DNA of 42,005 bases from a virus. Location: positions 64,001 through 106,005 of the IMG/VR virus record IMGVR_UViG_3300037088_000812; one strand, 5' to 3'. The notes under the pieces are model-generated. The model had not been told where the DNA came from, did not search any database, and was given only the letters and a program-made list of their open reading frames with translations. This document shows positions 22,954 through 42,005 of the stretch, piece after piece (within the stretch, counting starts at the first letter, position 1; every line of letters begins with the position of its first letter). A program made the position numbers and the translations under genes.

Positions 22954-23060
22954 GCAGCATTCTCATTTTGAGAGAAAGTAGGAACGTAGCTCTAAAGTCC
23001 TTTTACATGTAAACTGCCTATGAATTCGTGTCCAGCGTATAATCTTCTCACAGCCCGCTC

Positions 23061-27652: not shown

Positions 27653-28237
27653 ATGAAGAAGAAAATTAAACGACCGCAAACTAAAGAACAAAGGAAATTT
27701 GAGCGGGAAAAGAGAAACGCCCGTTACGGCAAACACTGGGATGAAATAAGACAATATGTTTACCAGCGTGATGGATTTATGTGCAGAGCGTGTGGAAAGG
27801 GCGTACCAGAAGTAAAGAAACTCAATGCCCATCATATACTTTTACTTAGAGTAAGTCAGACAAACGATATAAGAAACTTAGTTACGCTCTGCGACGAATG
27901 TCATAAAATAATAGAAACTAAAGCTCTTAATTTACTTAAGGCTGGCGGGCATAGATTTGAAGTTTTTAGAATGACGCACAGATATTTATATGAGTGTAAA
28001 TTAAAAAGACAACAAGCTCTGTTAGAAGAATTAAATAAAAAACATGGCGAGCCGAAGCCCGCCATAGAGTTAGATTATAAACCTAATGTTGCAGTTGTCG
28101 TAGATGGTCCTGATAGCTTAGGTGCAACCGCTGGTGCCGCTACTGGTGCTGGTGTCGCTGGGACTACCGGTGCTGGTACCGCTACTGGTGCTGGTGCCGC
28201 TACTGGTGCTGGTGGGACTACCGGTGCCGCGGGCTGA
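27653..28237 (+). CDS. HNH endonuclease with low-complexity Gly/Ala/Thr C-terminal tail
   Basis: CRACGK...NAHHILLLRVSQTNDIRNLVTLCDECH is an HNH motif. The tail is encoded by 9/18-nt tandem repeats and overlaps the convergent minus gene. Confidence 0.7.
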   Translation: MKKKIKRPQTKEQRKFEREKRNARYGKHWDEIRQYVYQRDGFMCRACGKGVPEVKKLNAHHILLLRVSQTNDIRNLVTLCDECHKIIETKALNLLKAGGHRFEVFRMTHRYLYECKLKRQQALLEELNKKHGEPKPAIELDYKPNVAVVVDGPDSLGATAGAATGAGVAGTTGAGTATGAGAATGAGGTTGAAG

Positions 28238-28425
28238 ATCGGTGCTACGACCTTTGGCTTTGAAGTAGCAATCACTTCTTGTATCGCAGCCTTAGCTCTG
28301 ACTTCTAATTCTTTAGCCATAGACTCTAATTTAACCTCAAGTTCCTTGGCTTTATTTTCTAGATTTTTAACATAGGCCTCAAGCTCAACCTCGTTAAAAA
28401 TCTTTCCACTAACGCTAATATTCAT
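28075..28425 (-). CDS. Coiled-coil protein with Pro/Ala/Val-rich (PAPV) repeat linker
   Basis: GGAGG RBS 5 nt before the ATG on the minus strand. AAGATAAT box (plus-strand coordinates 28443-28450) upstream. Confidence 0.5.
   Translation of the reverse strand: MNISVSGKIFNEVELEAYVKNLENKAKELEVKLESMAKELEVRAKAAIQEVIATSKPKVVAPIQPAAPVVPPAPVAAPAPVAVPAPVVPATPAPVAAPAVAPKLSGPSTTTATLGL
28121..28233. repeat. Tandem 9/18-nt repeat (ACTGGTGCTGGTGCCGCT-like) in the convergent overlap of the HNH gene and minus gene 28075-28425
   Basis: Direct reading: at least 6 imperfect units. Encodes (GA/T)n on + and (PAPVA)n on -. Confidence 0.8.
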
Positions 28426-31982: not shown

Positions 31983-32019
31983 ATTGTGTGTTGTGTGTTA
32001 TTATCTATGACCGCCGTTA

Positions 32020-32330
32020 TGGCCGCCACTGTTGCCACCGTTATGGCCGCCACCGTTATGACCACTGCCACCTGGTGCTACAGCCATTTCCACTGTTTCC
32101 GCCGCCGTTATGACCACTGTTTCCGCCGCCGTTATGACCACTGTTTCCGCCGCCGTTATGACCGCCATCACAAGGAGGATGCGGTGGAGGACAAGGTGGC
32201 TTTGGCGGAGGACAAGGAGGTTTTGGTGGAGGACATGGAGGAGGTTTTGGTGGAGGACATGGAGGTGGACCTGGAGGAGGTGTTGGCCCAGGAGGCGTTG
32301 GAGTAGGACCGGGTCCTGGATTATGTCCTC
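32020..32330. repeat. Tandem nucleotide repeats (3 x 24 nt at 32091-32162, plus GGAGGACAAGG/TGG..TTTGG units 32170-32300)
   Basis: Direct reading of exact 24-nt units CACTGTTTCCGCCGCCGTTATGAC. Confidence 0.85.
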
Positions 32331-35353: not shown

Positions 35354-35581
35354 ATGTGGATGTATGTAGAGGCTGAGAAGTTTGACGCTTGGTGGCATGA
35401 CGGTGGTGTATTATATACGTCTGGTCAAACCAATATAGGATCAAACGACAAACCTGGAAAATTTACAATATGGCCTGATTGGGGTGAATCTATGCCAGCT
35501 ATGATACATGCCAGTAGAACACATCTGCGTAAGTTAATTCCAACTATATTTAATGCCAAAGAAATAATGAGCAGTTCATGA
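35354..35581 (+). CDS. Tandem small-protein family member (C-terminus RKLIPTIFNAKEIMSS)
   Basis: Shared C-terminal motif [RK]xL[IL]xx[IL][FW]xxKx[IF]. Confidence 0.5.
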   Translation: MWMYVEAEKFDAWWHDGGVLYTSGQTNIGSNDKPGKFTIWPDWGESMPAMIHASRTHLRKLIPTIFNAKEIMSSS

Positions 35582-35826
35582 AACTAAAGAGAGGTATGTT
35601 AATAAAGACAAATTATGAAGCCTACTGTCTAGTGACTAAAGTTGAGGGCCTTAATGTTTTTGGTGTTTGGTTAACTTCTACTTATTTAGACGTTAGTCCT
35701 CTGCCGGCGTTTGATGACGCCAATGACACTAAACAATTGACAAAAGTTAATCGGGCAGAAACGCGATATTTTCTAAAGAGCATATTCGAATGTTTTGACA
35801 AAGGATTTGTAAGAACAAAAATATGA
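35578..35826 (+). CDS. Tandem family member (C-terminus TRYFLKSIFECFDKGF)
   Basis: ATGA overlap; motif variant. Confidence 0.45.
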   Translation: MKLKRGMLIKTNYEAYCLVTKVEGLNVFGVWLTSTYLDVSPLPAFDDANDTKQLTKVNRAETRYFLKSIFECFDKGFVRTKI

Positions 35827-36086
35827 AATTATTTAAATGGGTTGGCGCGAAGGACATTATATTATTACCTTTTACTCGTATATTATTTAGAGATGACGTT
35901 TCTTATAAAATAATCTGGGGGGACAAAACAAGCGGTGAGTGGGAATCAGCTAATCTTCCTGAGGTCAGTCTTAAATTATATAAGCCTATGGAAAATGTAA
36001 AGCTACAACCAGTATCCTATAAAACTTTAGTGGAGTTTATATGGAGTAAAAAGTTTAGCGACTTTTTGAAGAAGACCTTAAAATGA
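35823..36086 (+). CDS. Tandem family member (KTLVEFIWSKKFSDF)
   Basis: ATGA overlap. N-terminus MKLFKWVGAKDIILLPF resembles that of 36358. Confidence 0.5.
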   Translation: MKLFKWVGAKDIILLPFTRILFRDDVSYKIIWGDKTSGEWESANLPEVSLKLYKPMENVKLQPVSYKTLVEFIWSKKFSDFLKKTLK

Positions 36087-36361
36087 CTTGGCAAAATGTT
36101 AATGCTGGCGAGTGGTTGAGAAGATCTTTTAAAGAATCTTTCTCTACTGGTGTAACCTACATTCATGTAAGTTATAAGACTGACAAGTTGGTAAGATACA
36201 AAGTATTCACGCTTATCAAAGGTCCCAGTAAGCTAGTATGTTATAAGAATGAATTAGTCAACCTAGACACTAAAATTCCAGCACCTTTTAAAAAGACTAA
36301 AACATATAGACCGCTAATATCAATCATTTTTAATACTAAAGAGTTTGATGTAAGATTATGA
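36083..36361 (+). CDS. Tandem family member (RPLISIIFNTKEFDV)
   Basis: ATGA overlap; motif. Confidence 0.5.
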   Translation: MTWQNVNAGEWLRRSFKESFSTGVTYIHVSYKTDKLVRYKVFTLIKGPSKLVCYKNELVNLDTKIPAPFKKTKTYRPLISIIFNTKEFDVRL

Positions 36362-36627
36362 AAGAAAAGCTTTTCAAATGGCACAAACGTGAAGATATGA
36401 TAGCCTTGCCATACAGAATATTAAAGCATCGGCATTATGCAATAATTTATAAAGAAAAAGGTGCCCCATATTGGACTGAGGGCACAATACATAAAGAAGA
36501 CCTAGAAAAATTTCATCAGATTAACTATAACTCAAAATTTGATTTTAGAGAGTTTATTAAAAATATGTTTAGCTGGGATTGGTCATTGCTGCCAACTATG
36601 AGCTGGACCCCGGGGTATTATAAATGA
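36358..36627 (+). CDS. Tandem family member (REFIKNMFSWDWSL)
   Basis: ATGA overlap; N-terminus MKEKLFKWHKREDMIALPY. Confidence 0.45.
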   Translation: MKEKLFKWHKREDMIALPYRILKHRHYAIIYKEKGAPYWTEGTIHKEDLEKFHQINYNSKFDFREFIKNMFSWDWSLLPTMSWTPGYYK

Positions 36628-36863
36628 TGTGGTGGTATTCAAATGGTCGCGACGTGTGGCAAGCTGGTAATAGATATTTTAAGTATTTAAACGACACACT
36701 TCGTGTTACAATCTTAGACACAGATGAGTTAATAGGAACACCCAAAGCCTCTGATGTATTAATGCGCAAGTTGTTTATAGTAATCTTCAAAGCTAAAGAC
36801 TTTGTAATAAATGAACCGAAGTGGAAAATGCCTAAGGGCATCTCTATAGTAGGTTTAAAATGA
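36624..36863 (+). CDS. Tandem family member (RKLFIVIFKAKDFVI)
   Basis: ATGA overlap; motif. Confidence 0.5.
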   Translation: MMWWYSNGRDVWQAGNRYFKYLNDTLRVTILDTDELIGTPKASDVLMRKLFIVIFKAKDFVINEPKWKMPKGISIVGLK

Positions 36864-37084
36864 AAGAACCATTCATGTTTTTCTATTCCACTGAAGTAGC
36901 TGATAATTGGAGAGTGCATAAAAATAATGATGCATTTAAGTATGACTTTGCAAGCAGCGCACTTATAACTACTGATCATCAATTTTCTACTACAGTAGGA
37001 ATGAGACCAGCAACTAGAAAACAATTGCAGAAACTTGTCCTTCGCATTTTTCAAGCTAATAGAATAACGAGTTATAATACATGA
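36860..37084 (+). CDS. Tandem family member (KLVLRIFQANRITS)
   Basis: ATGA overlap; motif. Confidence 0.5.
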   Translation: MKEPFMFFYSTEVADNWRVHKNNDAFKYDFASSALITTDHQFSTTVGMRPATRKQLQKLVLRIFQANRITSYNT

Positions 37085-37521
37085 AAGCAAATTATGGATT
37101 AATTGAATCAATATTTGAAGACCCTAGTTATCTAAGTAAAGATGGTCCAAGAAGGTTACCTGAAAACGCAGATGTGGGTCTTTGTATACTATATGCTAAA
37201 ATATGGCCTGAGTGGAAGAACGCTTTTGAAGACCCTAGTCAATATAACGTGCATCCGACAGAAGCCGTTTTAACGCAGTTCCAAAATGCTTTAGATACCA
37301 ACAAGAAAAAATACAACAAATATAATATGAGCCTTGATGATACAGACGACGGTTGGTCATTATATAAACAACAATATAAATGGAGAGTTTCTTTTACAGC
37401 TTATCCAAAAGGTAATTACACTTATTATATTTCTATAGGTATAAAGAAAAACGGTACTCTAGATATTAATGATATAGCAATAGATAAAGAAGAAGAAGAA
37501 TTTGATTGGACCGAAACCTAA
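37081..37521 (+). CDS. hypothetical protein (146 aa; not an obvious family member)
   Basis: ATGA overlap; lacks the C-terminal motif. Confidence 0.45.
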   Translation: MKANYGLIESIFEDPSYLSKDGPRRLPENADVGLCILYAKIWPEWKNAFEDPSQYNVHPTEAVLTQFQNALDTNKKKYNKYNMSLDDTDDGWSLYKQQYKWRVSFTAYPKGNYTYYISIGIKKNGTLDINDIAIDKEEEEFDWTET

Positions 37522-37727
37522 TGGTAAGATATAAAAACTACGGTAAAACAATAGTATGGATAGTAGGTAACAAATTCCTCATACATGAATATGAAGGACG
37601 ATTGATTGCTGTAACTAAATATAGAGCGTGGCACCCTGGTGAAGAAACAGCGACCCAAAACATAGAACATATACATGAATTAATCCGTGCACTGTTTAGA
37701 GCAAAAGCAATGAAGGTAGAGCTATGA
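37506..37727 (+). CDS. Tandem family member (HELIRALFRAKAMKV)
   Basis: Motif. Confidence 0.5.
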   Translation: MDRNLMVRYKNYGKTIVWIVGNKFLIHEYEGRLIAVTKYRAWHPGEETATQNIEHIHELIRALFRAKAMKVEL

Positions 37728-37963
37728 TCTTACCCAAGATAAAGCGAATTGTAAGATTCAACAAGGATTTCTTTTTAATCACTCGAACCAGAAACGGCGA
37801 ACCGTATGGCCCTATGGTTTGGCCCGTAGATAAATTAATAGAATACAGCCCAGGTTCAAATTTATATGCTGAAGACTATAAAGACGCCGAAGAGCTTACA
37901 CAAACGGAGCGTCGATCTTTAATACCCATGTTTTTTACTTTTAGATGGACTAAAGCAACTTAA
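37724..37963 (+). CDS. Tandem family member (RSLIPMFFTFRWTKA)
   Basis: ATGA overlap; motif variant. Confidence 0.45.
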   Translation: MILPKIKRIVRFNKDFFLITRTRNGEPYGPMVWPVDKLIEYSPGSNLYAEDYKDAEELTQTERRSLIPMFFTFRWTKAT

Positions 37964-38012
37964 CCTAATTTCAAATCTTCAAACTCTACACATATAGTTA
38001 TCCCTTACTAAT

Positions 38013-38020
38013 AAGATAAT
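38013..38020 (+). promoter_or_regulatory. AAGATAAT box 6 nt upstream of ATG 38027
   Basis: No SD between box and start. Confidence 0.45.
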
Positions 38021-38026
38021 TGTCTA

Positions 38027-38284
38027 ATGAAAATTTGGAGCAAGTTTCAAGGCGCAAAAGGATTACCAGTCTTTATACCATTTAAGTATGGCAAGCAATA
38101 TTGCACACTTTATCTAGATTCAAAGTATGATAAGTATTGGCGTAATAGCTGGGCGGACACTGAATATATAGCAGAGTGGCACTTAGAGGAATACAAGCCT
38201 ACTGAAAAAGATTACCACAATATTATGCTAACAATATTTGAGGCAGTGCGTTCCTACGATTGGACACCTCCGCTGAGAAAATAA
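38027..38284 (+). CDS. Tandem family member (HNIMLTIFEAVRSYD)
   Basis: Motif. Confidence 0.5.
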   Translation: MKIWSKFQGAKGLPVFIPFKYGKQYCTLYLDSKYDKYWRNSWADTEYIAEWHLEEYKPTEKDYHNIMLTIFEAVRSYDWTPPLRK

Positions 38285-38667
38285 TGAGTGGATTTAACCA
38301 AGACATAATATGTCCTTATTGTGATTTTGAAATGGCTGAATTGACAGAAAACTATAAAGGTGCAGCTGAATATAAAGGTGTAGAATATGGCAAGTTCTCT
38401 GGTTGTCCTTTATGTGGTTGGACAATGTGGGAAGATGCTATAAACAGGAAAGCCGACGACAAAGAAAAAATACCACCTAAGTCTGTCATTCTACAGGCCA
38501 AAAAGATAGTAAGGCTTTATGATAAAATACCAGATAATAATCACGCTTTAATAGATTACTTTGTAGGGTTCGCCACTTTCGTGTTTGATGATTACGCAAA
38601 CGTCAATAGAACCTATGTAAACTTCTTACGTGGTCTAGCATCCTATATATGGTATGGAGAAGTATAG
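38260..38667 (+). CDS. hypothetical zinc-ribbon protein (CPYCDF...CPLCGW)
   Basis: Two CxxC pairs; not a family member. Confidence 0.45.
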   Translation: MDTSAEKIMSGFNQDIICPYCDFEMAELTENYKGAAEYKGVEYGKFSGCPLCGWTMWEDAINRKADDKEKIPPKSVILQAKKIVRLYDKIPDNNHALIDYFVGFATFVFDDYANVNRTYVNFLRGLASYIWYGEV

Positions 38668-38885
38668 TGGCTAAATTATATTATGACATTAGCGGCTATA
38701 TGATATACTGGTGGGCTGATAAGATTGGTCCTGCACCAGTTTACACTTGGGATTATAGTGCTAGTGTGTTTGAAGTTGCACCTAGAGAATATTTTCATTT
38801 TAGAGAAGACTCAAAACTAGCTGGTATAATGCAACAGCATATACTGATAAATGCAATATGGGAAGCTAAAACAATAAGGCGCTAA
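38649..38885 (+). CDS. Tandem family member (QHILINAIWEAKTIRR)
   Basis: Motif. Confidence 0.5.
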   Translation: MVWRSIVAKLYYDISGYMIYWWADKIGPAPVYTWDYSASVFEVAPREYFHFREDSKLAGIMQQHILINAIWEAKTIRR

Positions 38886-39107
38886 ATGTGGTATTATAAA
38901 GATCATGTATGGCTACATGGCTATAAAATGTTTAGGGTATATTTGAAAATACCCGCTGAAACTAGTGTGTATTCTTTAAGCACTCAAACGTTAAAAAACT
39001 TAGAAAATGTACTTAGCATAAGAACCATATTGAAGCCAGCAACTGACAGCAATTTAAAAGAACTGATAACGTCTATTTGGAAGACCAAACATATAGAGGC
39101 TCGCTAA
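38886..39107 (+). CDS. Tandem family member (KELITSIWKTKHIEAR)
   Basis: Motif. Confidence 0.5.
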   Translation: MWYYKDHVWLHGYKMFRVYLKIPAETSVYSLSTQTLKNLENVLSIRTILKPATDSNLKELITSIWKTKHIEAR

Positions 39108-39310
39108 CTATGACGTATTTATACCATGATGACAAAATTCATAGCCGGTGGTTTTTAGCACCAGACATATGTTGGTTGTGGGGAAAGGATACTAATCGCT
39201 TAGTGGCTATTAGACCTTATGCTATACCGCTCGCCTATGTCAAAGCAACTAATATAAATTTGAGAGGATTAATAAGGGCAATCTGGTTGGCCAAAGAGAT
39301 AGTCTCATGA
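39077..39310 (+). CDS. Tandem family member (RGLIRAIWLAKEIVS)
   Basis: Motif. Confidence 0.5.
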   Translation: MEDQTYRGSLTMTYLYHDDKIHSRWFLAPDICWLWGKDTNRLVAIRPYAIPLAYVKATNINLRGLIRAIWLAKEIVS

Positions 39311-39498
39311 GTCAATATGGTCCATGGATTATAGGCAAATGGCACTATACGTATTACTCTGGTGCAGATATGTTTATCTCACGCGAGTATGATAATGATA
39401 CGTTTGGCCACTTCCATAAGATTGACAAGAAAATGAAATCTATATTTTCAACGATATTTAAGGCTAATGAATTTGACGAAGAGATACCCGCATTATAG
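39307..39498 (+). CDS. Tandem family member (KSIFSTIFKANEFDEE)
   Basis: ATGA overlap; motif. Confidence 0.5.
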   Translation: MSQYGPWIIGKWHYTYYSGADMFISREYDNDTFGHFHKIDKKMKSIFSTIFKANEFDEEIPAL

Positions 39499-39512
39499 TA
39501 TGAGGTTAAAAT

Positions 39513-39731
39513 ATGAATCTTAAAGATGTAGCAAAAGATGCAGCTAAAAAAGAAGCTGAGAAAGAAGGAAAAAAGAAAGGCACTTCTATGTGGCAATTCG
39601 TGTCCAAAGATGGTAAGACTAAAGTGAGGCAATTAAGTCCAGACAGCTGGCAGTTATGGCAAGATGGTAAAACTGAAACTATTGACCTTAAAGCTCTTTT
39701 AAAGAAAGCTGTAGATTTAACACAAGCCTAA
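39513..39731 (+). CDS. hypothetical Lys-rich small protein (not a family member)
   Basis: GAGG RBS; ORF. Confidence 0.4.
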   Translation: MNLKDVAKDAAKKEAEKEGKKKGTSMWQFVSKDGKTKVRQLSPDSWQLWQDGKTETIDLKALLKKAVDLTQA

Positions 39732-39732
39732 G

Positions 39733-40008
39733 ATGTGGTTATATAGTAAACAAGAGTGGGGCTTTGGCCCTGAAGATGTAAGACATCGCTTTAAGTATAT
39801 TAAACAAAGCTCCCACTCAAAAGATTTATATTATGAATTGGCTGATATAATGTTCACATTAAATAGAGAGGTAGTTTATAGTTTTAAGGATCGCATAAAA
39901 CACGCTACCTTTATACAGGATAGGACAGAAGATAGAGCTGACGAGGAACAACTTAAATTTTTAATTAAGGCTATATTTATGACAGATAAAAATATAAGGA
40001 GTGCTTGA
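39733..40008 (+). CDS. Tandem family member (LKFLIKAIFMTDKNI)
   Basis: Motif. Confidence 0.5.
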   Translation: MWLYSKQEWGFGPEDVRHRFKYIKQSSHSKDLYYELADIMFTLNREVVYSFKDRIKHATFIQDRTEDRADEEQLKFLIKAIFMTDKNIRSA

Positions 40009-40234
40009 TTTGATTAAAGCTTATACACCAGATGTTGATGCGCCCTATGAAGCATTCGCAACTTGGTCAATGGAGAAGTATTTTTACATTTGGTATGGAG
40101 CAGGTAGCGCTAGAAGATTAGCTATAACTCAAGCAGGACAAGCTAGTAAAGAGATGGCTAAGGCTACTAACAAACAATTGCACATGTTAATTGCAGTAAT
40201 ATTTCATGCTAGGGAAATAGAGGTGAACATATGA
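40001..40234 (+). CDS. Tandem family member (KQLHMLIAVIFHAREIEV)
   Basis: Motif. Confidence 0.5.
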   Translation: MLDLIKAYTPDVDAPYEAFATWSMEKYFYIWYGAGSARRLAITQAGQASKEMAKATNKQLHMLIAVIFHAREIEVNI

Positions 40235-40449
40235 TCTATTATATGAAAATCACCAAAGCTTCCCCAGATAGTTTCTGGTTCTTTAGCCAAAAGAATACTA
40301 CTTTCACCTGGCTCTCTCGCACTAGTATGTTGGGTATAGAGCATATGAACTATCACCCTAATTGGGCTAAAGACGAGGCTAATAGAAATCAATTACATCA
40401 GCTGTTGAAAATAGTATGGACAGTCAAAAGAATTGAAGGATATAAATGA
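40231..40449 (+). CDS. Tandem family member (NQLHQLLKIVWTVKRIEG)
   Basis: ATGA overlap; motif. Confidence 0.5.
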   Translation: MIYYMKITKASPDSFWFFSQKNTTFTWLSRTSMLGIEHMNYHPNWAKDEANRNQLHQLLKIVWTVKRIEGYK

Positions 40450-40742
40450 TAATCTATTATTTGACTAACTGGGACACGAAGTTCTGGCCAGGATATTGGC
40501 CTGCTTATGAATATTTCATTGAAGGTAACTTTGTACCAAAGATGCTTAAAGGCTCAACTAAGACACCTAACGAAGGTTATATAAGTGGCCTATGGTTTGT
40601 ACAGCAAGACAATAAAGTGGTAGCCAATCATACGGTAGCTAAAACTGAAATAGTGCCCTTACCTAAAAATGCTTATTTAGAAAATGGGCTTTGTGAATAT
40701 TTGATCACAGCACTCTTTAATGTGAATGAGATAGAAGATTAA
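40446..40742 (+). CDS. Tandem family member (EYLITALFNVNEIED)
   Basis: ATGA overlap; motif. Confidence 0.5.
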   Translation: MIIYYLTNWDTKFWPGYWPAYEYFIEGNFVPKMLKGSTKTPNEGYISGLWFVQQDNKVVANHTVAKTEIVPLPKNAYLENGLCEYLITALFNVNEIED

Positions 40743-40958
40743 GATGATTGAAATAAGAAAAACTAAAGGCGATAAAAGATTTTTTATCAAAAGACCTTAG
40801 CAAATCAGAAGGAAGTACACATGCTCATTCATATAATATTTGACGCAAGCGAGACAGAACGGAATGGGTAAAAAGTCAAATTTGAGAGCCAGTCGGAACG
40901 CTACCCTAAGAACTAAAGGGCTGCTTTTTGCCTACACATTCGTGTCCGGCATGAAGAA

Positions 40959-41288
40959 GTGATTATGAAAATAGGACAATGGTATTATTGGAAGAGTCAT
41001 ACTAAACGCTATATATTGCCATTGAAAGTACTCCCTGGAGAGAAGTTCCTGTTCATAATTGGTGAAGAAGGATCCAAGAACGAAAGCGATGTGATCGAAT
41101 GGTATGACGAAAAGATCCACAGAACTAGAGTAGAAATAAGCAAACATAAAGTCATATTCTGGGATCTTAGAACGGACTATATGGGAAACTATAATCTAAT
41201 AGATAAACAGCTAGCCCCAAAAGGCCTTCCAATAATAGTAAAGCTACCGTCGAATATAGCTCATAAAGTAATAAGGAATGTGATATGA
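40959..41288 (+). CDS. hypothetical protein, N-terminally related to the tandem family (KIGQWYYWKSHTKRYILPLKVL)
   Basis: ORF preceded by the conserved 22-mer at 40929-40950. Confidence 0.4.
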   Translation: MIMKIGQWYYWKSHTKRYILPLKVLPGEKFLFIIGEEGSKNESDVIEWYDEKIHRTRVEISKHKVIFWDLRTDYMGNYNLIDKQLAPKGLPIIVKLPSNIAHKVIRNVI

Positions 41289-41305
41289 TTTGCTCTCAGC
41301 CACAA

Positions 41306-41426
41306 GAAAACGTTATGGCAAACGCCGAATTGACGGCCAGTTGTTCTTGCGGTATAGAAACTAGCAAGGCGCTTTTTGCCTATGAGTTCGTGTCCAGGAA
41401 AACGTTATGGCAAACGCCGAATTGAC
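41306..41426 (+). repeat. 29-nt perfect direct repeat GAAAACGTTATGGCAAACGCCGAATTGAC (41306-41334 and 41398-41426)
   Basis: Exact duplicate read from sequence; the copies flank one copy of the conserved 22-mer. Confidence 0.9.
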
Positions 41427-41644
41427 AGCCCGCCGGTCGCCTGGCTCTAAAGCGCCCAGGGTTGAAACAGCCTATACTATCGTGTCTAGCGTAGTACTAG
41501 AGGCCTTTGCGTGATAGGCGTAGCTCGTGCGTGGGATCGCTACACTACTTGGAAGGTGGGTGCTAAGCTCGAGCCTGAGCTCATTACTCTTATCTGGACT
41601 GTGGAGATTATATCAGTATGATACTATTTAAAGCGGTGATGATA

Positions 41645-41878
41645 TCATATTATGTCTGGCGAACAGGCAGGATGCAGATAGTATATGACGAAGCTGAGAA
41701 TACTGTCTGCCTTCCATATGATAGGGAAGATCATCCTTAGTTGTTCAGTAGCAGCTTTACTAAAGCCCTCTGGCAGAGCGGATCTAGCCCGAAAGCATTC
41801 AATAGGTTGGTCTAGCCTCACTAATCTAGCAAAGAACCAAAGTGTTTGCCCGGGATAGCTATAGTCATAGTATATCAT
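41645..41878 (-). CDS. Inverted copy of the tandem family (MIYY...LWFFARL...EQLRMIFPIIWKADSIL), possibly a decaying pseudogene
   Basis: Homology to 40231-40449 (MIYYMKITKASPDSFWFFSQ...NQLHQLLKIVWTVKRI) on the opposite strand. Reads through past the motif for 16 extra residues. Confidence 0.3.
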   Translation of the reverse strand: MIYYDYSYPGQTLWFFARLVRLDQPIECFRARSALPEGFSKAATEQLRMIFPIIWKADSILSFVIYYLHPACSPDII

Positions 41879-42005
41879 CTAATACACTGTTCATATGGAA
41901 TGGCAACGAGCTAAGAGTTAATTATCCTGACTACATACCAAGCTGGGCCGAGAAGCAAGCTACTCCTAAACAATTGCATGATCTGATGTATCATATATGG
42001 AACGC
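41842..42005 (+). CDS. Partial tandem-family member running off the right edge (...PKQLHDLMYHIWN)
   Basis: GTG 41842 opens a frame containing the family motif. No ATG; 3'-truncated by the window. Confidence 0.3.
   Translation, partial: MFARDSYSHSISSNTLFIWNGNELRVNYPDYIPSWAEKQATPKQLHDLMYHIWN

Follow-up and report, generated by a model that had tools for sequence, protein, structure and literature searches.

Bacterial and phage operons contain short coupled and leader ORFs, with termination-reinitiation at ATGA, GTGA or TGATG overlaps. Repeated elements between small phage genes have been described as PeSL in T4-type phages, where an early promoter and a stem-loop recur at small-gene cassette junctions in hyperplastic regions (PMC2839356, PMC4122927); its defining parts are the stem-loop and a promoter of sigma-70 type, TTGACA-N17-TATAAT or a variant thereof (PMC4122927).

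The window, the whole stretch of 42,005 nt that was analysed, is AT-rich and phage-like (37% GC). Its predicted products include a single-strand DNA-binding protein resembling gp32, a 5'-3' exonuclease and a protein similar to thymidylate synthase. A long plus-strand array of genes of 60-100 aa, with a C-terminal motif common to the members, begins at about 35.3 kb. The region 40743-41640 recalls the PeSL in that a conserved repeat of tens of nucleotides lies between small ORFan genes, in a variable part of a large phage with T4-like replication genes, and in that the cassette content at the element junctions varies between relatives. Unlike the PeSL, its repeated element has neither a promoter nor a stem-loop and is an open reading frame. 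Like coupled and leader ORFs, the frames concerned are very short, fill the intergenic gap, start near the upstream stop, stop over the downstream start and are conserved only at the peptide ends. They differ in their many repeats per genome, one fixed motif, a fixed 16-codon spacing and fixed rare codons; they have no attenuator or terminator hairpin, and their translation is predicted. Finally, a GC-rich patch without a long ORF in an AT-rich genome is also a trait of the structured phage RNAs of Rfam families, but no model match, excess stability or conserved pairing was found here. We propose that the locus belongs to a family of micro-ORFs that are unannotated, coupled in translation and conserved at their ends, a reading whose chances we rate as about even.

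The features of the region, together with the distant copy c1, are the following.

22968..23042 (+), copy c1, with the 23-codon layout (TTG, 16 codons, motif); holds 22-mer copy 1 (23015-23036)
40744..40871 (+), broken family gene (family HMM E = 9.5e-6); its first frame runs from ATG 40744 for 18 codons and its second (40776-40871) carries the family C-terminal motif …KEVHMLIHIIFDASE…
40882..40962 (+), candidate micro-ORF c2, TTG start, 26 codons, MRASRNATLRTKGLLFAYTFVSGMKK and stop; holds 22-mer copy 2 (40929-40950)
40965..41288 (+), 107-aa gene, directly 3' of c2
41303..41338 (+), copy 1 of a 36-nt repeat: ribosome-binding region, ATG and first 8 codons (MANAELTA) of c3
41315..41425 (+), candidate micro-ORF c3, MANAELTASCSCGIETSKALFAYEFVSRKTLWQTPN and stop; holds 22-mer copy 3 (41377-41398)
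41395..41430 (+), copy 2 of the 36-nt repeat: start region of c4 and, in another frame, the tail of c3
41407..41514 (+), candidate micro-ORF c4, MANAELTARRSPGSKAPRVETAYTIVSSVVLEAFA and stop; holds the degenerate motif copy (41469-41490)
41511..41621 (+), 36-aa ORF with a GTG start, resembling the small-gene family over the family's C-terminal half only (…ELITLIWTVEI…)
41608..41634, 27-nt block TTATATCAGTATGATACTATTTAAAGC, between c4 and the 3' end of the minus-strand gene; 25 of 27 positions kept in L025 (1766-1791)
41645..41878 (-), member of the small-gene family, 77 aa (family HMM E ~1e-3)

The sequence-only reading of this DNA had noted a 22-mer pattern at 23015, 40929 and 41377, which was recovered at all three positions with 0 occurrences expected (100 shuffles). 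A relaxed search combined with a small profile revealed a fourth, degenerate copy, AGCCTATACTATCGTGTCTAGC, at 41469-41490. The TATAAT reported after copy 1 is present at 23038-23043 and is unique to that copy among the motif copies. The assignment of each copy to non-coding sequence, by contrast, did not hold, as copies 2, 3 and 4 lie in frame within the ORFs 40882-40962, 41315-41425 and 41407-41514. Translated in the common frame, the window copies read AYEFVS, AYTFVS, AYEFVS and AYTIVS, and the differences between them are largely synonymous. The 22-mer would be, rather than an intergenic signal, the codon block (Phe)-Ala-Tyr-x-Phe-Val-Ser-(Arg/Ser) of very short ORFs, which would have a common core of 23 codons and a whole length of 26-50 codons and would mostly be missed by gene callers.

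The ends of these frames lie close to their neighbours. For c2, in-frame alternatives to the TTG start exist at ATG 40864 and TTG 40840, and the stop TGA (40960-40962) is located 2 nt 5' of ATG 40965 of the 107-aa gene and overlaps GTG 40959. The open frame of c3 reaches back to ATG 41285, a codon overlapping the 107-aa gene's stop; its conserved TTG is at 41330, 16 codons 5' of the Ala codon at 41378, and its stop TGA (41423-41425) overlaps the TTG of c4 (41422-41424). An AGGA (41396-41399) stands 7 nt 5' of ATG 41407 of c4, whose stop TGA (41512-41514) overlaps GTG 41511 of the following ORF. The TTG of c1 is found 15 nt after the stop of the upstream gene, and its frame is interrupted by an in-frame TAA (23010-23012) that aligns with GAA in c4, one step away.

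Relatives of the phage were found only through a protein database combined with contig look-ups, queries with the 933-aa and 107-aa proteins against viral and metagenome contigs having returned none. The downstream 933-aa protein has homologues that are 69, 62, 57, 51, 44 and 35% identical (contigs L019-L024), and a further relative, L025, was reached through a 72% homologue of the 107-aa protein. Ten further full copies were identified in this way (four in L019, one in L020, two in L022, one in L023 and two in L025), all on the gene strand, while the two most distant relative contigs yielded no motif copies. The set comprises 14 copies from six related phage contig sets, namely c1-c4 of the window, k1-k4 (L019), m1 (L020), n1 and n2 (L022), p1 (L023) and q1 and q2 (L025); a partial fifteenth copy, p2 (L023), was left out of the counts. 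These 14 copies come from a single phage lineage and are not independent. The positional orthologues of c2 are k4 in L019, a called 39-aa gene with an ATGA overlap, and q1 in L025, with a TGATG overlap; the 107-aa protein that follows is 75% identical in L019 and 72% in L025.

Comparison of the 14 copies revealed that the motif always occupies one reading frame, Ala-[Tyr/His/Cys]-x-[Phe/Ile/Tyr]-Val-Ser. In 10 of the 14 the Ala codon is preceded, at a distance of exactly 16 codons, by a start codon (ATG in 4, TTG in 6), and in k2 and k3 the start is offset by exactly one codon. Within the 15 variable codons of 12 copies, stops occur twice in the motif frame compared with 14 and 8 times in the other frames. 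Inside the motif the copies vary chiefly at third codon positions, and most of the changes are synonymous (GCC/GCT, TAT/TAC, CAC/CAT, GAA/GAG, ACA/ACT, TCC/TCT), and the differences summed over all pairs of 12 copies are distributed as 103/88/164 by codon position. Many copies start 0-17 nt past the upstream stop, an operon-like placement, and in 8 of the 10 intact ORFs the stop lies on or over the start codon of the following gene. The stop/start junctions are TGAnnATG/GTGA in c2, TTGA in c3, GTGA in c4 and k2, ATGA in k4 and TGATG in q1, with short overlaps in k3 and m1. A Shine-Dalgarno sequence is weak or absent before most of the conserved ATG or TTG codons and clear before other genes of the phage; among the copies, the ribosome-binding site is clear for c4 (AGGA, 7 nt) and p1 (AGGAG, 5 nt). 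Gene callers had recorded three of the micro-ORFs (P0014, P0015, P0016), two in L019 and one in a JGI contig, the last (P0014) being a 46-aa version of c3 called once.

Substitution patterns between pairs of copies were analysed in the three frames. The copies c4 and q2 (L025) differ at 15 nucleotides, distributed 6/2/7 by codon position, which produce only 6 amino-acid changes, fewer than expected from random placement (P = 0.019 in the motif frame versus 0.57 and 0.97 in the others), with pS at 0.34 against a pN of 0.14. The same test gave P = 0.005 in the motif frame for c3/c4 and P = 0.003 for c2/q1, although in the latter pair the differences are clustered and the other frames also score low. 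Among the 7 differences between k3 and n2, 4 are synonymous third positions, and the pairs c2/k4, k3/m1 and n2/m1 gave no coding signal. Taken as orthologue pairs, these copies appear to carry a moderate coding signal. The ORF at 41285-41425 had been guessed to be non-coding; the motif in frame, the conserved start position and the stops overlapping the next start point instead to coding.

From this arrangement we infer that the micro-ORFs are translated and that the peptide or the coupling has a role. Since they start near the preceding stop and end on or over the next start, they would be read within the long plus-strand polycistronic message of the small-gene array. Each would begin at an ATG or TTG, either exactly 16 codons 5' of Ala or a few more, usually 0-17 nt from the preceding stop, and would most likely hand ribosomes to the next gene by termination-reinitiation coupling. 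The product would be a short peptide with conserved ends, and the putative peptides from 40743-41640 would include LLFAYTFVSGMK and VETAYTIVSSVVLEAFA. On this account the region would consist of c2, c3 and c4, the ordinary 107-aa gene and fragments of the array family. If the micro-ORFs are real, standard annotation of this phage lineage has missed a recurrent gene family, and the apparent 'gene deserts' of the lineage would be tightly packed, translationally coupled coding sequence. Such a family could help to explain the expression, and perhaps the reshuffling, of long arrays of tiny genes; it opens no long-standing question. In practice, a repeated 'intergenic motif' in a phage should be checked for a common reading frame before it is labelled regulatory.

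Several observations are hard to square with coding alone, the weak Shine-Dalgarno sequences of most copies among them. Two copies are interrupted by in-frame stops, c1 (TAA) and n1 (TAG), yet in both the 21-mer matches that of the intact k1 exactly. In n2 a start codon is missing altogether, and q2, which lacks one in the usual place, starts from an ATG lying farther 5'. Codon choice in the motif is narrow: the Val codon is the rare GTG in 12/12 copies (12-21% of Val codons in the phage), the Phe/Ile/Tyr codon ends in C in 12/12, the Ser codon is only TCC or TCT (TCC making up 5-7% of the phage's Ser codons), and GCC encodes Ala in 9/12 (about 15% of its Ala codons). Because the rare codons of the motif never vary, an extra constraint on the nucleotide string TTCGTGTC itself is suggested. 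The spacer between start and motif, that is, the middle of the peptide, appears to evolve almost neutrally: the positional orthologues c2 and k4 share 46% of their nucleotides (pN 0.50, pS 0.66), against 75% protein identity for the adjoining downstream gene. The 21-mer shared by c1, k1 (L019) and n1 (L022), TGCCTATGAATTCGTGTCCAG, spans three phages whose 933-aa proteins are only 57-69% identical, and it ranks among the three longest exact matches between the genomes of the window phage, L019 and L022.

These features suit the main alternative, which we regard as possible but somewhat unlikely, in which the conserved unit is a cis-acting element at gene-cassette junctions, made of the boxes AAAWTGAGRG and GCCTAYNNNTTCGTGTCCAG placed 48 nt apart, and the open frame is a by-product. 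Such an element could serve as a binding site for a phage protein (e.g. a translational operator) or as a homology patch for cassette exchange by recombination. It would account for a 21-mer that stays identical in three phages despite the divergence of the 933-aa protein, for the fixed rare codons, for the retention of both boxes and their spacing in the two copies with in-frame stops, and for a spacer that is nearly neutral yet constant in length. The copies k1 and n1 lie on opposite sides of one orthologous gene and the cassette content at the junctions differs between the window, L019 and L025, both of which speak for such an element. It leaves unexplained the interchange of ATG and TTG at a fixed position, the shortage of stops in one frame only, the whole-codon indels and the stops overlapping the next start codon; in addition, the motif is not palindromic and neither promoter-like hexamers nor a hairpin accompany it. 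Both kinds of constraint would be reconciled if the micro-ORF were translated and its two ends were also kept as nucleotide homology patches or phage-protein binding sites for swapping small-gene cassettes both inside one phage and among phages of the lineage, a dual purpose that we consider doubtful. Were it true, the family would be a coding counterpart of the T4-type PeSL junction elements, without promoter or hairpin.

The exact 29-mer repeat, with copies 92 nt apart, was confirmed, and lies within the 36-nt repeat (41303-41338 and 41395-41430), which has 2 mismatches. In terms of the micro-ORFs, the 29-nt repeat is the predicted ribosome-binding site (AGGA, 7 nt), the ATG and the first eight codons common to the adjacent paralogues c3 and c4. 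Alignment of these two ORFs revealed 94% identity over the 5' 36 nt and about 45% over the remainder, the lengths being exactly equal. This pattern suggests either an old duplication with a 5' end that was later homogenised or recombination within the conserved start region; the contrast between the two parts is also what a junction element would produce after recombination or gene conversion within its box.

The gene content around the element changes between relatives. Every copy is located between small genes, and the neighbour genes differ among the window, L019, L022 and L025. Compared with the window, L025 has an extra family gene between q1 and a 115-aa gene and a complete family gene at the position of c3, and it has no counterpart of 41495-41607; as read from this comparison, the junctions in the region do undergo turnover. 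Several family-gene fragments are found in 40743-41640, including the broken gene at 40744-40871, whose two frames join at a six-T run, and the 36-aa ORF at 41511-41621, whose match to the family HMM is weak (E = 0.08) and which has no counterpart in L025. The micro-ORFs could on these grounds be decaying remnants with no present function, in which only the 5' end of a former gene survived deletions and insertions in a fast-turnover array, as the 4 of 14 copies with a broken frame or no start in the usual place, the broken family genes of the region, the indels relative to L025 and the presence of only three members in the protein database might suggest. We find this reading unlikely, for the element has been retained in six related phage contig sets, and its boxes, 48-nt spacing and open frame are conserved while the spacer has diverged to 46-63% identity; neutral decay would erode the boxes as fast as the spacer. 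The suggestion that the locus is a rearrangement scar was partly right. Indels and gene fragments do occur at the cassette junctions, with L025 differing at c3 and lacking 41495-41607, but the inverted gene is also present in L025 and so is not the scar of a recent inversion.

The higher GC content attributed to the region was confirmed: the window stands at 0.371, whereas 41289-41640 has 0.494 and 41430-41640 has 0.507, values that place both segments in the top 0.7-1.3% of windows of the same size; 41430-41640 indeed contains no ORF of at least 60 aa. The rise in GC would come from an Arg/Pro/Gly/Ala-rich c4-type ORF, from the GC-rich rare codons of the motif and from the adjoining gene fragment, the 36-aa ORF accounting for much of the GC-rich stretch. 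A composition of 49% GC in a 37% genome and the lack of a long ORF could also point to a structured non-coding RNA in 41289-41640, or to several, such as an sRNA, an intron or a tRNA-like molecule. The covariance-model search proposed with that idea gave no Rfam match for the whole window at the gathering threshold and chance-level matches only for 40400-42005 at E up to 10, and ARAGORN detected neither tRNA nor tmRNA. Folding of 41289-41640 against dinucleotide shuffles gave z scores of +1.65 (plus strand) and -1.58 (minus strand), and six sub-regions ranged from -0.4 to +1.0, so that the region described as structured folds no more stably than shuffled sequence. An 11-bp hairpin was confirmed at 41674-41684/41700-41710. 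RNAalifold returned 0 consensus pairs for 12 copies, and for five c4-type copies a weak consensus of -7.1 kcal/mol. A long-range helix enclosing the start codon, between an upstream GGC-AAA segment and the TTTGCC of the motif, was considered and rejected, being notable only in c2 and c3, where the complementarity is weak (combined P = 0.02, selected post hoc). This complementarity is the one further point in favour of a structured RNA; with folding z between -1.6 and +1.65, no Rfam or tRNA match, hardly any consensus pairing and 41495-41607 missing from L025, we judge that explanation very improbable. An attC-like inverted-repeat structure was likewise sought and none was found.

Direct repeats in a region with few called genes, and the TATAAT right after copy 1, could suggest that the recurring 22-mer forms the basis of a replication origin or of a cluster of promoters. 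The motif copies are spaced by 448 and 92 nt, which is not iteron-like, the region is GC-rich and not AT-rich, and the cumulative GC skew of the window, proposed as a check on an origin, rises monotonically without a turn. A search for sigma-70-like promoters found no hexamer pair on any motif copy, the TATAAT belongs to copy 1 only, and no -10 element is conserved in the sequence 17 nt past the TTGA box. In c2, c3, k4 and q1 the motif ends 8-14 nt from the next start codon, and a promoter of the next gene is unlikely there because this spacing is too short. We therefore regard an origin or promoter cluster as the most remote of the readings. Overall, the observations of the sequence-only reading were mostly accurate, whereas its interpretations as non-coding sequence, structured RNA or a regulatory hub or origin found no support in the matches, stability, consensus structure, promoters or skew examined.

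Beyond the lineage, the motif has no evident counterpart. Scans returned 3 matches in viral_contigs, within long unrelated ORFs and at chance level, 0 in metagenome_contigs, and 5 in genome_contigs (a Dactylosporangium gene and one MAG), which were taken as chance. A profile search of the protein database with ten micro-peptides returned only the three members already known, Pfam and PHROGs gave no homologue for the micro-peptides or the neighbouring proteins, the 107-aa protein included, and comparison of 40400-42005 at the DNA level with 50,697 phage records found no match. Three further identities were discarded. Homology of the micro-ORFs with the N-terminal end of small-gene family members, as in YAFVSY of the gene at 42032, was unsupported by HMM searches in both directions; a programmed frameshift joining a micro-ORF to its downstream gene is at odds with a frame relation that varies between copies; and all three stop codons end ordinary genes in this phage, against stop-codon recoding.

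The exact 107-aa protein is encoded on 24 public metagenome contigs, the longest of 178 kb. All public contigs of the window phage are at least 99.9% identical to the window and therefore represent a single phage population, and their 100% identity within the region is uninformative because the overall identity is already that high. Across about 15 of the public contigs, no gene was called between 41289 and 42031. The lineage is a large uncultivated phage, its source contigs being metagenome assemblies of up to 178 kb.

Downstream of c4, the inverted copy of a family gene that had been noted was verified as the minus-strand ORF 41645-41878, with its match to the family HMM; L025 keeps the C-terminal part, …QLR[M/S]IFPIIWKA, likewise on its minus strand. 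The 27-nt block that precedes it (41608-41634) overlaps the single promoter-like match of the area, TGGACT-16-TATGAT (41595-41622).

Dozens of genes encoding proteins of 60-100 aa are arranged in tandem at 35354-40742 in the window and at 11068-20324 in L004. These genes share a common C-terminal motif (…atxkQLhxLIkaIF/W…), and searches of Pfam and PHROG returned no match for them. The array genes flank a 933-aa protein, which in the distant relatives L021 and L024 is found within a tail/baseplate module (Phage_base_V, gp25). The 9-mer TTCGTGTCC, present in five exact copies in the window versus about 0.3 expected, occurs in frame at 39597-39605 within the ORF 39513-39731 (…MWQFVSK…), and its complement is located at 40472-40480, within the region of the gene 40446-40742 that encodes the N-terminus.

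Phage genomes do not usually contain pseudogene-like fragments. Several members of this small-gene family are truncated or broken, both in the window and in the related phage contig L019:

Window 40744-40871: family gene in two frames, split at a T6 run
Window 41511-41621: family member, C-terminal half only
Window 41842 to past the window end (42027): family member with a GTG start, overlapping the minus-strand gene at its 5′ end
L019 8773-8998: frameshifted family member

The micro-ORF (c4 in the window, q2 in the related contig L025) and the minus-strand family gene converge, and the gap between the former and the latter's 3′ end holds a 27-nt block, TTATATCAGTATGATACTATTTAAAGC. Comparison of window 41608-41634 with positions 1766-1791 of L025, a relative whose homologue of the 107-aa protein is 72% identical, revealed that 25 of the 27 positions are kept. 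This block, which includes the palindrome AGTAT-G-ATACT, could bind a protein or act as either a late-type promoter or a terminator.

Further right, three independent Logan assemblies (L010, L012 and L013) all end at window position 41704, which falls within an 11-bp hairpin (41674-41710, plus strand, -20 kcal/mol), in its 3′ arm. No repeated 14-mer accounting for this break was found in the 51 kb searched; the common end may mark strain variation to the right of 41704.

The GC peaks at ~28.2 kb and ~32.2 kb in the window are caused by tandem repeats that are GC-rich, recur every 12-24 nt and have Gly/Ala/Thr-rich codons:

Window 28131-28245: GC-rich tandem repeats
Window 31999-32286: GC-rich tandem repeats

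In the related contig L023, a GC-rich unit of ~18 nt, CTTTTTCAAGCAGGACC, is repeated four times in tandem at 1890-2010, between two copies of the 22-mer motif and within one called ORF of 154 aa. The box GGGCAAACG, located 5′ of c4-type copies in other phages, recurs in this stretch of L023 in a different reading frame.
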